Origin: Escherichia phage T7
Sequence record: MZ375241.1
DNA: 38,926 bases
Direction: 5' to 3' (one strand)
Both the position numbers and the translations under genes were made by a program. Within the stretch, counting starts at the first letter, position 1. Each line of letters opens with the position of its first letter. The notes below the pieces were generated by a model. That model did no database searches, was not told where the DNA came from, and was given only the letters and a program-made list of their open reading frames with translations. This document shows, one piece after another, positions 1 through 38,926 of the stretch.

Positions 1-160
1 TCTCACAGTGTACGGACCTAAAGTTCCCCCATAGGGGGTACCTAAAGCCCAGCCAATCACCTAAAGTCAACCTTCGGTTGACCTTGAGGGTTCCCTAAGG
101 GTTGGGGATGACCCTTGGGTTTGTCTTTGGGTGTTACCTTGAGTGTCTCTCTGTGTCCCT
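1..160 (+). repeat. Left direct terminal repeat (160 bp), identical to 38767-38926
   Basis: Exact duplicate of the last 160 bases of the window; T7-type terminal redundancy. Confidence 0.95.
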
Positions 161-174
161 ACCTGTTACAGTCT

Positions 175-338
175 CCTAAAGTATCCTCCTAAAGTCACCT
201 CCTAACGTCCATCCTAAAGCCAACACCTAAAGCCTACACCTAAAGACCCATCAAGTCAACGCCTATCTTAAAGTTTAAACATAAAGACCAGACCTAAAGA
301 CCAGACCTAAAGACACTACATAAAGACCAGACCTAAAG
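175..338 (+). repeat. Array of CCTAAAG-like heptamers just inside the left terminal repeat
   Basis: cctaaag or 1-mismatch variants at about 175,188,200,213,226,239,293,306,332; three more copies inside the terminal repeat (17,41,59). Confidence 0.7.
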
Positions 339-387
339 ACGCCTTGTTGTTAGCCATAAAGTGATAACCTTTAATCATTGTCTTTAT

Positions 388-410
388 TAATACAACTCAC
401 TATAGGGAGA
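388..410 (+). promoter_or_regulatory. T7 RNAP promoter phiOL (+1 G at 405), non-consensus A at -11
   Basis: taatacaactcactatagggaga; 22/23 match to the T7 promoter consensus. Confidence 0.85.
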
Positions 411-6998: not shown

Positions 6999-7030
6999 GG
7001 CTCACCTTCGGGTGGGCCTTTCTGCGTTTA
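6999..7030 (+). terminator. Early terminator TE (host RNAP, rho-independent)
   Basis: ggctcacc-ttcg-ggtgggcc stem-loop followed by tttctgcgttt. Confidence 0.85.
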
Positions 7031-7041
7031 TAAGGAGACAC

Positions 7042-7064
7042 TTTTACGACTCACTAAAGGAGGT
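7042..7064 (+). promoter_or_regulatory. T7 RNAP promoter phi1.5 (+1 at 7059) with altered upstream edge
   Basis: ttttacgactcactaaaggaggt; -17..-14 reads tttt instead of taat; lies at a deletion junction. Confidence 0.7.
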
Positions 7065-7071
7065 ACACACC

Positions 7072-7161
7072 ATGATGTACTTAATGCCATTACTCATCGT
7101 CATTGTAGGATGCCTTGCGCTCCACTGTAGCGATGATGATATGCCAGATGGTCACGCTTAA
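7072..7161 (+). CDS. 1.5: Small hypothetical protein
   Basis: 29-codon ORF after RBS aaggaggt; T7 gene 1.5 position. Confidence 0.7.
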   Translation: MMYLMPLLIVIVGCLALHCSDDDMPDGHA

Positions 7162-35814: not shown

Positions 35815-35846
35815 ACTCAAGGCCACTACAGATAGTGGTCTTTATG
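35815..35846 (+). promoter_or_regulatory. RNase III site R18.5
   Basis: ctcaaggccactacagatagtggtcttt hairpin. Confidence 0.55.
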
Positions 35847-35905
35847 GATGTCATTGTCTATACGAGATGCTCCTACGTGAAATCTGAAAGTTAACGGGAG
35901 GCATT

Positions 35906-36337
35906 ATGCTAGAATTTTTACGTAAGCTAATCCCTTGGGTTCTCGCTGGGATGCTATTCGGGTTAGGATGGCATCTAGGGTCAGACTCAATGGACGCTAA
36001 ATGGAAACAGGAGGTACACAATGAGTACGTTAAGAGAGTTGAGGCTGCGAAGAGCACTCAAAGAGCAATCGATGCGGTATCTGCTAAGTATCAAGAAGAC
36101 CTTGCCGCGCTGGAAGGGAGCACTGATAGGATTATTTCTGATTTGCGTAGCGACAATAAGCGGTTGCGCGTCAGAGTCAAAACTACCGGAACCTCCGATG
36201 GTCAGTGTGGATTCGAGCCTGATGGTCGAGCCGAACTTGACGACCGAGATGCTAAACGTATTCTCGCAGTGACCCAGAAGGGTGACGCATGGATTCGTGC
36301 GTTACAGGATACTATTCGTGAACTGCAACGTAAGTAG
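35906..36337 (+). CDS. 18.5: Rz-like i-spanin
   Basis: 143-aa ORF with N-terminal TM segment (LIPWVLAGMLFGLGWHLG). Confidence 0.85.
   Translation: MLEFLRKLIPWVLAGMLFGLGWHLGSDSMDAKWKQEVHNEYVKRVEAAKSTQRAIDAVSAKYQEDLAALEGSTDRIISDLRSDNKRLRVRVKTTGTSDGQCGFEPDGRAELDDRDAKRILAVTQKGDAWIRALQDTIRELQRK
36021..36272 (+). CDS. 18.7: Rz1-like o-spanin embedded in the +1 frame of 18.5
   Basis: 83-aa ORF wholly inside 18.5; lipobox-like ...TISGCASES. Confidence 0.75.
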   Translation: MSTLRELRLRRALKEQSMRYLLSIKKTLPRWKGALIGLFLICVATISGCASESKLPEPPMVSVDSSLMVEPNLTTEMLNVFSQ

Positions 36338-38527: not shown

Positions 38528-38609
38528 GGTCTTCCTGACCGACTGATGGCTCACCGAGGGATTCAGCGGTATGATTGCTTGACACCACTTCATCCCTATA
38601 GAGTCAAGT

Positions 38610-38695
38610 CCTAAGGTATACCCATAAAGAGCCTCTAATGGTCTATCCTAAGGTCTATACCTAAAGATAGGCCATCCTATCAGTGTCACCTAAAG
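38610..38695 (+). repeat. CCTAAGG/CCTAAAG heptamer-like array just inside the right terminal repeat
   Basis: cctaagg at 38610 and 38647, cctaaag at 38660 and 38689; mirrors the left-end array. Confidence 0.6.
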
Positions 38696-38766
38696 AGGGT
38701 CTTAGAGAGGGCCTATGGAGTTCCTATAGGGTCCTTTAAAATATACCATAAAAATCTGAGTGACTA

Positions 38767-38926
38767 TCTCACAGTGTACGGACCTAAAGTTCCCCCATAG
38801 GGGGTACCTAAAGCCCAGCCAATCACCTAAAGTCAACCTTCGGTTGACCTTGAGGGTTCCCTAAGGGTTGGGGATGACCCTTGGGTTTGTCTTTGGGTGT
38901 TACCTTGAGTGTCTCTCTGTGTCCCT
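38767..38926 (+). repeat. Right direct terminal repeat (160 bp), identical to 1-160
   Basis: Exact duplicate of window positions 1-160. Confidence 0.95.

Follow-up and report, generated by a model that had tools for sequence, protein, structure and literature searches.

Phased CCTAAAG heptamers at the left end of bacteriophage T7, the SRL array, and their possible role at concatemer junctions

What is served by the array of short CCTAAAG repeats that lies between the left terminal repeat of bacteriophage T7 and its first promoter? The question was taken up in a stretch of DNA of 38,926 nucleotides (sequence record MZ375241.1; hereafter, the window), which is T7 of a deletion lineage of laboratory origin. 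A preliminary description, made from the letters of the sequence, had pointed to a left-end CCTAAAG array at positions 175-338, and with near certainty the array is the one known in T7 as SRL ("short repeats, left"): the segment is 100% identical to reference T7 in an alignment to V01146, and DQ100054 (T7.1) carries a repeat_region named "SRL" at exactly 175..338. The array is textbook T7 anatomy, and thus nothing is added here as a discovery; it is a known element, already catalogued and annotated, to which a function has been assigned by inference. The short-repeat regions SRL and SRR of T7 reportedly appear in the genome description by Dunn and Studier and, to our knowledge, their function has never been established, the repeats having been listed as "function unknown" since the T7 genome was sequenced. 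In a full-text literature search, the accessible papers yielded no discussion of SRL function and no test of SRL by binding or genetics. The ends of T7 are of practical concern in transduction and phagemid systems, in work with synthetic or rebooted T7 genomes, and when T7-like genomes are assembled, from which the termini are often missing.

The direct terminal repeat (TR) is 160 bp long; its left copy occupies 1..160, as in DQ100054, and is identical to the right copy at 38767..38926. The left copy is followed at 161..167 by the signal at which T7 RNA polymerase pauses or terminates at the concatemer junction, a class II motif that reads ATCTGTT in the wild type and ACCTGTT here (T162C, by alignment to V01146). 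SRL comes next; its first CCTAAAG unit is 14 nt from the TR edge and 7 nt past the pause motif, and its end is 50 bp ahead of phiOL (388..410), the first T7 promoter to the right of the array, whose +1 carries A405G. These two substitutions are the departures from wild type beside the array; within it there are none. A degenerate 13th unit, CATAAAG, is found at 355..361. The heptamer is also present inside the TR, where the three copies mentioned in the preliminary description were located at 17-23, 41-47, and 60-66 (38783, 38807, and 38826 in the right repeat), together with a CCTAAGG at 94-100. At the other end of the genome, SRR (38595..38729), a looser array of CCTAAAG and variants that is identical to reference T7, has the orientation of SRL, with units starting at 38595, 38610, 38623, 38647, 38660, 38689, 38712, and 38723. 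A conserved block, CCTTTAAAATATACCATAAAAATCTGAGTGACTA (38733..38766), abuts the right TR and is common to T7, T3, K11, BA14, and gh-1. All of these features are on the + strand. In a replicating concatemer, SRL forms one flank of a junction with the order SRR - TR - pause motif - SRL; across this junction, the + strand has 13 exact heptamers and the - strand none.

Chance does not account for these heptamers. The window contains 24 exact copies of CCTAAAG, as compared with 3.9 +/- 2.0 in dinucleotide shuffles, of which 0/100 reach 24. Within 175-338, eight exact copies (175, 188, 213, 226, 239, 293, 306, and 332) and four copies with one mismatch (CCTAACG at 201, CTTAAAG at 267, and CATAAAG at 280 and 319) all lie on the + strand and give SRL a total of 12 units, in agreement with the nine or more copies and variants counted in the preliminary description. 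For 164 nt of one strand, the expected number of exact copies is 0.011 under a Markov model of the whole window and 0.13 under the region's own composition, and the Poisson probability of finding at least eight is 4e-21 and 2e-12, respectively. The preliminary description had itself proposed comparing the heptamer frequency with the expectation from base composition; eight copies stand against 0.011-0.13 and, given these probabilities, an attempt to refute the heptamer excess on compositional grounds fails. Both the shuffles and the Poisson figures thus rule out base composition as the source.

The irregular spacing of 7-27 bp that had been ascribed to the copies does not hold. From start to start, the units of SRL are 13, 13, 12, 13, 13, then 28, then 13, 13, 13, 13, and 13 bp apart; in effect, SRL consists of two blocks of six units with a 13-bp period (autocorrelation at lag 13, z = 9.5), each unit having a CCTAAAG core and, after it, ~6 bp of variable spacer. 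Block 1 (175..245; units at 175, 188, 201, 213, 226, and 239) and block 2 (267..338; units at 267, 280, 293, 306, 319, and 332, with spacers that are mostly ACCAGA) are separated at 246..266 by a phase-break spacer, ACCCATCAAGTCAACGCCTAT, for which relatives have a gap in the same place. Five of the 13 unit columns are invariant in 12/12 units, and the spacer columns come close to random; if changes were placed uniformly, at least five invariant columns would arise with a probability of 3.5e-5. In pairwise comparisons, the heptamers are on average 91% identical and the spacers 39%. Selection falls on the heptamer and not on the whole 13-bp unit. A simple recent tandem duplication is ruled out, because conservation is limited to the heptamer columns.

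No coding content was found in 175-338, where the only open reading frames are mechanical ones of 20-25 aa that clip the edges, as the preliminary description had held. Its further statement that promoters do not explain the region stands in part: a sigma-70 scan detected no consensus promoter within the array, but an annotated promoter does lie inside it. This is the minor leftward E. coli promoter A0 (210..272, - strand), with a -10 element at 231-236 and a -35 element at 255-259 in V01146 and DQ100054. The A0 entry was annotated by homology, and A0 is a weak promoter defined from in vitro transcription. The consensus scan (-35/-10 hexamers with 16-18 nt spacing) recovered A1-A3 and did not recover A0. 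The preliminary description had recognized neither the A0 overlap nor the named SRL, its strict phasing, or the coincidence of block 2 with a cluster of primase start sites.

The setting of the array is shared widely. Eleven Autographiviridae genomes with defined ends were compared, namely, T7, phiA1122, 13a, T3, phiYeO3-12, SH2, K11, BA14, gh-1, SP6, and K1F. An oriented short-repeat array follows the left TR in all 11, a lineage-specific heptamer is found again to the left of the right repeat in the same + orientation in 11/11, and the RNA polymerase pause motif TATCTGT is at the TR edge, with the array next to it, in all 11 natural phages; seven bases of the class II motif are reported to be strictly conserved (bioRxiv 10.64898/2026.02.12.705533). 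The heptamer is CCTAAAG in T7, phiA1122, 13a, T3, phiYeO3-12, and SH2, CCTGAGG-like in K11, CCTTATG in BA14, CCATAGG in gh-1, CCTTAGT in SP6, and CCTACAG in K1F. In 10 of these phages, the best-fitting period of the repeats is 12-13 bp (or double); in K1F it is ~14.5 bp. In T7/T3-like sequences, the first unit lies 7-9 nt past ATCTGT in 19/19 cases; the number of units is ~4-6 in T3-like phages and reaches ~14 in 13a. An inter-block gap of 28-29 bp is at the equivalent place in T7, phiA1122, 13a, and IMG/VR relatives, and T7-like and T3-like phages alike have conserved the ...CTATCTTAAAG element, in which the phase-break spacer is joined to unit 7. When IMG/VR was scanned for three exact units in phase, 16 loci came up, of which 14 are T7/T3-like termini and two are unrelated repeats. 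Thus, the earlier statement that such arrays flank the TR in T7-type phages is correct for 11/11 genomes, while its second half, which implicated them in concatemer processing and packaging, derives from position. The comparative picture is made up of an oriented heptamer that is specific to the lineage, its fixed distance to the pause motif, the mirror arrangement of primase sites (see below), and the dispensability of most units; it turns this vague implication in packaging into separate testable hypotheses.

What might read the heptamers? Since the lineage-specific heptamer occurs on both sides of the TR, the comparison points to a reader encoded by the phage. A site for a host factor is unlikely, because T7, BA14, and K1F all infect E. 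coli with three different heptamers. A link to phage promoter specificity was also rejected, as T3 and T7 have the same heptamer and different promoter specificities.

Laboratory clones bear on how much of the array is needed. In serial-transfer clones, units have been lost and duplicated, and in one case the array has collapsed from 12 units to two. This last clone, T7_160S, is plaque-purified and viable with 2/12 SRL units; most of the array is thus not essential. SRL is mostly dispensable and redundant. Two other serial-transfer clones have 11 units each and, together with T7_160S, indicate that any contribution of SRL is quantitative at most. Clone names such as T7_160S, which give the transfer followed by L or S, fit the CiPGr study, although no accession number was matched to it. 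The fitness of T7_160S cannot be attributed to the array, because it carries other mutations besides the contraction. The pause motif was lost in 8/8 clones, and an array of 11-12 units was kept in seven of them. A sequencing-adapter artefact behind the changes at 161-162 was judged unlikely, because they differ from what adapter read-through would give and the ancestral record of the series has the wild-type sequence.

The explanation that we prefer, tentatively and at a confidence that falls somewhat short of probable, is that SRL may be a redundant accessory cis-element for concatemer junctions, with heptamers that would be read by a phage-encoded processing or packaging factor. SRL would help in making and resolving the junctions, that is, in joining and cutting genome copies, and the heptamers would be tandem recognition sites for a factor that acts directionally. 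The best candidate reader may be the small terminase gp18 with gp19, alongside an RNA polymerase-lysozyme complex paused at the class II motif; many weak sites could keep the machinery at the junction and lead to sequence-specific cuts at the TR edges. A passage of PMC3350473 that cites Molineux 2006 describes the cutting at the TR as sequence-specific and the way in which the left repeat is completed as not understood.

The terminase proteins bear on this assignment. Between T7 and T3, which have the same heptamer, gp18 is 92-93% identical and gp19 86%; between T7 and BA14 or K11, which have a different one, gp18 is 72% identical and gp19 is 81% (BA14) or 80% (K11) identical, a co-variation that comprises four pairs and is confounded by phylogeny. 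The most basic segment of gp18, RRSPQLYNAI.K.L.RHKF, is nearly invariant across phages with different heptamers, which fits poorly with gp18 as a putative reader of the variable heptamer positions. It has been reported that the gp18 proteins of T3 and T7 are functionally interchangeable and that discrimination between T3 and T7 DNA maps to gp19 (PMC3276506). As the heptamer is common to both phages, it is not what sets that specificity. For gp18 (PF11123, phrog_1351), no solved structure and no known sequence specificity were found.

The unexpected result is that primase start sites are mirrored around the junction, on the lagging-strand template toward the nearest end. On the - strand, five T7-primase recognition pentamers lie at 245..329 (GGGTC 245, TGGTC 286, TGGTC 299, GTGTC 312, and TGGTC 325), and their mirror image is found on the + strand at 38639..38733 (TGGTC 38639, GTGTC 38683, GGGTC 38697, and GGGTC 38729). 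In the 200-bp flanks of six phages, TGGTC, GGGTC, and GTGTC occur 18 times on the + strand and three times on the - strand on the SRR side, and twice on the + strand and 14 times on the - strand on the SRL side. There are 32 pentamers on the outward lagging-strand templates, as compared with 8.0 +/- 2.65 in dinucleotide shuffles (0/2000 reach 32), while the other strand of the flanks has five, against 4.75 in shuffles. The polarity persists without T7 (Fisher's test, p = 8.5e-4). Among 50 pentamers of equal letter content, TGGTC and GGGTC rank second and third, the overlapping word GGTCT being first (28 vs 2). Neither the shuffles nor these same-composition pentamers support composition as the cause of the polarity.

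A stricter definition gives a sharper picture. The full published signature is 5'-(G/T)2GTC-3' with an A/T-rich 8-nt 3' flank and TA, TG, GA, or GG at flank positions 9-10 (PMC12839067). Pentamers serve only 5/12 SRL units, and four of the five have this signature; in the window, SRL holds 4/29 of the full-signature sites of the - strand and SRR 3/21 of those of the + strand. Interior segments of 200 bp have at most two such sites each (P = 2e-5 for SRL and 2e-4 for SRR), which makes SRL and SRR the densest full-signature primase clusters in the T7 genome. Over six phages, full-signature polarity is 15 to 0, and K1F, examined out of sample, has six outward sites and two on the other strand. 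The mirrored polarity is seen in T7, K11, BA14, gh-1, and K1F and more weakly in T3. In PMC12839067, 26 selected templates bound primase better than controls in vitro, and most of them primed better. Templates S1-S4 in Table 1 of that paper are the SRL primase sites, and S25 and S26 match by sequence the SRR sites at 38639 and 38729; clustering of sites at the genome ends is not discussed there.

These observations suggest two further readings. On the one hand, SRL (bottom strand) and SRR (top strand) could serve mainly to gather start sites for gp4 primase in the DNA just beyond the TR, which we consider rather doubtful. There, a fork that runs off one or the other end would set its final Okazaki primer, and the 3' tails of the TR would anneal into concatemers; in the primase template, the A/T-rich 3' flank as well as the G-containing "-10 element" would come from the heptamer. 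The 13-nt period would be the sum of a 5-nt pentamer and an 8-nt discriminator, so that each TGGTC would give its neighbour the -10 "TG". In favour of this role are the outward enrichment, the polarity of full-signature sites, including that in K1F, the presence of S1-S4 and S25-S26 among the stronger-binding and better-priming templates, and an SRL strand that is unusually unstructured (z = +2.17). However, the heptamers have the same orientation on both flanks, whereas a pure primase design should be mirror-symmetric, and block 1, made up of the six units closest to the TR, lacks primase-type pentamers on the - strand throughout its interior (175-244); GGGTC at 245-249 straddles the last base of the block. 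Moreover, T3-type SRLs have no full-signature site and SP6 has no enrichment, yet both have heptamer arrays, and T7_160S is viable without any SRL primase site. The T7 sites are also non-independent because of the repeated ACCAGA spacer, and a T after GGTC, which is outside the classical recognition site, is strongly preferred (28/33).

On the other hand, SRL and SRR may be "terminal priming zones" in which the oriented heptamers are a second, superimposed signal; this combination is possible, if still on the improbable side. Were it true, the priming zones would fix the last Okazaki start and leave the TR as a 3' single-stranded tail with short fillable gaps, annealing of the tails into concatemers would be promoted, and repeats without an assigned function would gain one. 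Under the preferred explanation, an accessory element for junction processing, priming would be a second layer on block 2, whose spacers may supply bottom-strand start sites for gp4 primase, with the top-strand sites of SRR as their mirror; given these mirrored sites, the last Okazaki fragment of an outward fork would start just outside the TR.

Three other explanations were weighed. The array might be a largely neutral satellite, a slippage-prone and concertedly evolving filler between the TR and phiOL that persists solely as spacer DNA and is homogenized by unequal exchange in concatemers. The ready shifts of copy number in serial-transfer clones, the collapse to two units included, and the variation in natural unit number would be expected of such a filler, and a perfect (CCTAAAGATTTTG)x10 tandem in an unrelated 126-kb viral contig indicates that repeats of this kind arise anywhere. 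Nevertheless, decay should erode all columns alike, whereas what is seen is an invariant heptamer between scrambled spacers; in addition, orientation, ATCTGT offset, phasing, and presence on both flanks have been kept across seven genera despite turnover of the motif. We regard a largely neutral satellite as unlikely. A buffer at the leading end is very improbable. Here, the array would be expendable, low-complexity, restriction-site-free DNA that shields promoters and genes from end-nibbling or early restriction. The left end of T7 is the end that enters the cell first, the region is non-coding, and a recent paper reportedly links the early-injected region to type I restriction sensitivity in Autographiviridae; yet a buffer leaves unexplained the conserved heptamer, the strict phasing, the orientation, and the array at the right end, and the TR already gives redundancy.

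A role in transcription or at the RNA level is quite unlikely. The array could provide a downstream context for class II pausing by T7 RNA polymerase, an unstructured C/A-rich RNA made by read-through or from a cryptic E. coli promoter at the junction, or a place for A0. It begins 7 nt past the pause motif, A0 is annotated within it, its + strand RNA is poor in G (10% G, 31% C) and less structured than 199/200 shuffles, and the junction terminator has been reported to behave, depending on context, as an E. coli promoter whose starts lie just downstream (bioRxiv 10.64898/2026.02.12.705533). By contrast, the same study found that stable transcripts from the region are not abundant. The SRR heptamers are upstream of the TR and not downstream of a pause, the loss of the pause motif in every clone left seven arrays at 11-12 units, and A0, besides being weak, defined in vitro, and missed by the consensus scan, lies inside the TR in T3 and not in an array. 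Over positions 1-1000, Rfam covariance models matched no known RNA family at E <= 1. Strand structure, in RNA or DNA, was also discarded as an explanation, the z-score of the SRL strand given above being the opposite of what it predicts, and the run-off RNA from A0 shows no more structure than its shuffles do.

An element for junction processing, the preferred explanation, has parallels in known systems. Arrays bound by small terminases lie beside the cut sites of other phages; for instance, the R-sites of lambda cosB are bound by gpNu1 and the pacL/pacR boxes of SPP1 by G1P. Like these, SRL has several short repeats in the same orientation beside a sequence-specific terminase cut and is redundant, non-coding, and lineage-specific. 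Unlike them, it has twelve units of 13-bp period on the last-packaged side of the cut and a looser array on the other side, most of its units can be deleted, and gp18 is a candidate binder. The T7 gp4 primase sites (PMC2910064; PMC12839067) are a second parallel, as block 2 on the bottom strand and SRR on the top strand match the full signature; however, only four to five of the 12 SRL units carry such a site, and the heptamer itself is not the recognition sequence. Finally, the class II pause signal ATCTGTT, 7 nt upstream of the array, is conserved together with it in 11/11 phages, but it is a separate single-copy motif and is mutated in the window.

Between positions 175 and 338 of the window there are eight exact and four one-mismatch copies of the heptamer CCTAAAG, every one on the plus strand. 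In these 164 nt, a global Markov model predicts 0.011 exact copies and the local composition 0.13, which gives probabilities of about 1e-21 to 1e-12 for the observed count; in the entire window, the heptamer occurs 24 times against 3.9 expected. Thus, the excess claimed in the preliminary description is borne out, with a frequency above what base composition predicts, as are the three copies it placed in the terminal repeat (TR), which are exact and present in each TR copy (1..160 and 38767..38926). By contrast, the spacing, which had been described as irregular, follows steps of 13 bp (12 in one case) within two six-unit blocks (175..245 and 267..338) separated by a single 28-bp step, and the autocorrelation of the array peaks at lag 13, far above any other lag (z = 9.5). 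The region had also been called non-coding and not explained by promoters; ORFs that reach into it are indeed at most 25 aa long, but the annotation places A0, a weak leftward E. coli promoter, on the minus strand at 210-272, where a consensus promoter scan missed it.

The element is already known and annotated: it is SRL ("short repeats, left") of phage T7, reportedly described by Dunn and Studier in 1983 with the T7 genome sequence, along with its right-end partner, SRR. It can be named as such because 175-338 is identical to the reference T7 sequence and GenBank DQ100054 (refactored T7.1 section alpha) annotates SRL as a repeat_region at exactly 175..338 (+), in addition to TR at 1..160. 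As for the window itself, bases 1-900 match two "Mutant Escherichia phage T7" records perfectly and reference T7 at 99.8% identity; from the latter, the first 420 bases depart at T162C and A405G alone. The alignment of window 1-25000 to reference 1-26011 breaks into four pieces, and the window is thus a T7 genome with three internal deletions, all inside the first 25 kb, which sum to 1,011 bp and account for the whole length gap to the 39,937-bp reference. The 160-bp TR is identical at both ends. The closest record, MZ375237, is 292 bp longer across window 1-25000.

When the twelve units are aligned in a 13-bp register, columns C1, T3, A4, A5 and G7 are invariant and two more nearly so, while the six spacer columns are near random; at least five invariant columns would be expected with P = 3.5e-5 if the 36 non-consensus letters were uniformly distributed. 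Compared pairwise, the heptamers average 91% identity and the spacers 39%. Thus, both the heptamer and its spacing are constrained. A young tandem duplication was considered and rejected, as conservation sits in the heptamer columns and the spacers are scrambled. The plus strand of SRL contains 41% A, 31% C and 10% G, folds more poorly as RNA than 199 of 200 shuffles, and matches no Rfam family. The phase break between the blocks (246-273) finishes in ...GCCTATCTTAAAG; the CTATCTTAAAG element, which looks like the junction motif CCCTATCTGTT, is conserved in T7-like phages together with the 28-29 bp step, and is also found in T3-like phages.

The concatemer junction carries ATCTGTT, a pause/termination motif for T7 RNA polymerase that belongs to class II (for this class, see bioRxiv 10.64898/2026.02.12.705533); SRL starts 7 nt past it and ends 50 bp ahead of promoter phiOL. 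At the other end of the genome, SRR (38595-38729, plus strand, in the same orientation) is a looser array of CCTAAAG, CCTAAGG, CCTATAG and CATAAAG, followed by a conserved 34-bp block, CCTTTAAAATATACCATAAAAATCTGAGTGACTA, that abuts the right TR (38733-38766). This block (CCTTTAAGAAT...AAAAATCTGAGTG) is conserved in five genera, represented by T7, T3, K11, BA14 and gh-1, and contains ATCTG like the opposite TR edge, so that ATCTG flanks both cut sites. Two substitutions that set the window apart from reference T7, at 38579 and 38581 (GCATCACACC to GCTTGACACC), generate a perfect TTGACA hexamer in the interval from gene 19.5 to SRR.

The organization of these ends is shared among relatives. Left ends were compared for eleven phages (T7, phiA1122, 13a, T3, phiYeO3-12, SH2, K11, BA14, gh-1, SP6 and K1F) and right ends for seven. 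In every one of the eleven, TATCTGT marks the left TR's inner edge and is directly followed by an oriented short-repeat array, the best period of which is 12-13 bp or double that (about 14.5 bp in K1F); across 19 T7/T3-like sequences, the first unit lies 7-9 nt past ATCTGT. The heptamer itself changes with the lineage: CCTAAAG in T7- and T3-like phages, CCTGAGG-like in K11, CCTTATG in BA14, CCATAGG in gh-1, CCTTAGT in SP6 and CCTACAG in K1F. Each lineage's own heptamer reappears left of the right TR and usually within TR too, always on the plus strand and essentially never on the minus strand. The earlier proposal of TR-flanking arrays in T7-type phages therefore holds. In IMG/VR, a search for three phased exact units hit 16 loci, 14 of which are T7/T3-like termini. 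Another viral contig (IMGVR_UViG_3300042887_002020, 126 kb) carries a perfect tandem, (CCTAAAGATTTTG)x10, at about 7018-7141 on the minus strand, with identical spacers and without the ATCTGT context; this contig is unrelated to T7 and has the heptamer and the 13-bp period in common by coincidence.

Information on the requirement for SRL comes from the window and seven "Mutant Escherichia phage T7 clone T7_<number>L/S" GenBank genomes, each compared with the reference. The clone names fit a CRISPR-based study of genome reduction by serial transfer (PMC9825161), which sampled large and small plaques at intervals of 10 transfers. SRL has 12 units in five of the eight genomes, 11 in two and only 2 in one (T7_160S, CCTAAAGTATCCTCCTAAAG), and another clone has one unit duplicated and one lost. 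Copy number thus changes readily, and plaques can form without most of the units, which limits functional claims for SRL to a quantitative, redundant role.

The role in concatemer processing and packaging put forward in the preliminary description is an inference. On our best account, SRL would act as a redundant cis-element at the junction flank, its oriented, lineage-specific heptamers being putative sites for a junction or packaging factor that the phage encodes, with mirrored primase start sites superimposed on the array. The heptamer reader is more likely to be encoded by the phage than by the host, as T7, BA14 and K1F share E. coli and differ in heptamer. By analogy with the cosB and pac arrays of other phages, the small terminase, gp18 (PF11123 and phrog_1351, structure unsolved), is the natural candidate. 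The heptamers of T3 and T7 are identical and their gp18 proteins 92-93% identical, and these proteins swap freely in vivo and in vitro (PMC3276506); in BA14 and K11, which have other heptamers, gp18 identity is 72% compared with near 80% for gp19. Also consistent with this role, the RNA polymerase-lysozyme complex is reported to pause at the junction and, through interaction with gp18 and gp19, to start maturation (PMC3276506). Nevertheless, the central basic helix of gp18 hardly varies among phages with differing heptamers, and discrimination between T3 and T7 DNA maps to gp19 (PMC3276506). On balance, gp18 is a plausible reader, at somewhat below even odds. In BA14, gene 18 is intact (EU734171 ~35842-36111) and encodes 89 aa, 72% identical to T7 gp18, although it is left unannotated in the GenBank record.

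On the plus strand, block 2 of SRL has GACCA or GACAC as spacer sequence, which becomes TGGTC and GTGTC on the minus strand; these are recognition pentamers of T7 primase, 5′-(G/T)2GTC-3′ (PMC2910064, PMC12839067). In six phages, the 200-bp flank left of the right TR holds 18 such pentamers on the plus strand and 3 on the minus strand, and that right of the left TR holds 2 and 14, which places the sites on the lagging-strand template of a fork heading to the nearest end. That strand has 32 sites against 8.0 ± 2.65 in dinucleotide-preserving shuffles (32 reached in 0 of 2000), and the opposite strand 5 against 4.75 expected. Taken phage by phage, the polarity reaches significance in T7, K11, BA14 and gh-1, is weak in T3 and is missing from the TR flanks of SP6; it persists when T7 is excluded (Fisher's test, p = 8.5e-4), and K1F, looked at later, has 6 vs 2 sites. 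Among 50 pentamers of equal letter content, TGGTC and GGGTC rank second and third, after the overlapping GGTCT (28 vs 2 over the six phages). The word (G/T)GGTCT, which takes in the primase pentamers, is mirrored about TR, on the plus strand at 38639-38733, on the minus strand at 245-329 and likewise in the equivalent flanks of relatives; T follows GGTC in 28 of 33 cases, compared with about 30% in the T7 interior, and lies outside the classical primase site.

In a template signature described in 2026, two further features join the pentamer: an 8-nt 3′ flank rich in A/T and, at positions 9-10 of the flank, TA, TG, GA or GG (PMC12839067). Four of the 29 full-signature sites on the minus strand of the whole window are within SRL and three of the 21 on the plus strand within SRR, while interior 200-bp windows never hold more than two; over the six phages, polarity is 15 to 0. 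Table 1 of that paper lists the SRL sites as S1-S4 (246, 287, 300 and 313, negative chain) and two SRR sites as S25 and S26. Its 26 templates, these included, reportedly bound primase more strongly than controls and most primed better, and repeats, genome ends and concatemers are nowhere mentioned in it. Since the 5-nt pentamer and the 8-nt flank add up to the 13-nt period, each TGGTC would supply the "TG" element of its neighbor. The primase sites as a whole suggest that SRL and SRR may also serve as terminal priming zones, with TR left single-stranded and annealing into concatemers. Such zones leave the heptamers as such unexplained: heptamer orientation is the same on both TR flanks, the minus strand of block 1 holds no primase-type pentamer between 175 and 244, T3-type arrays have no full-signature site, and the 2-unit clone is viable.

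The laboratory clones also carry changes outside SRL. ATCTGTT (161-167) is mutated to ACCTGTT by T162C in the window and altered in all seven other clones, with at least four mutant alleles (ACCTGTT, CTCTGTT, CCCTGTT and ACTCTGTT), while it is intact in all eleven natural phages; this looks like convergent loss during laboratory passage. A405G, at +1 of phiOL, changes TATAAGGAGA to the consensus TATAGGGAGA in seven of the eight clones, including the window; the eighth, T7_1t3, carries instead an AT-rich segment of about 21 bp four times in tandem just upstream of phiOL. Finally, TR is only 140-152 bp long in seven of the eight clones, because short direct repeats (CCCTAAGG...CCCTTGGG) in the equivalent of window 71-116 have lost about 16-20 bp between them or because 8 bp of a hairpin loop are deleted, while the window retains the full 160 bp.
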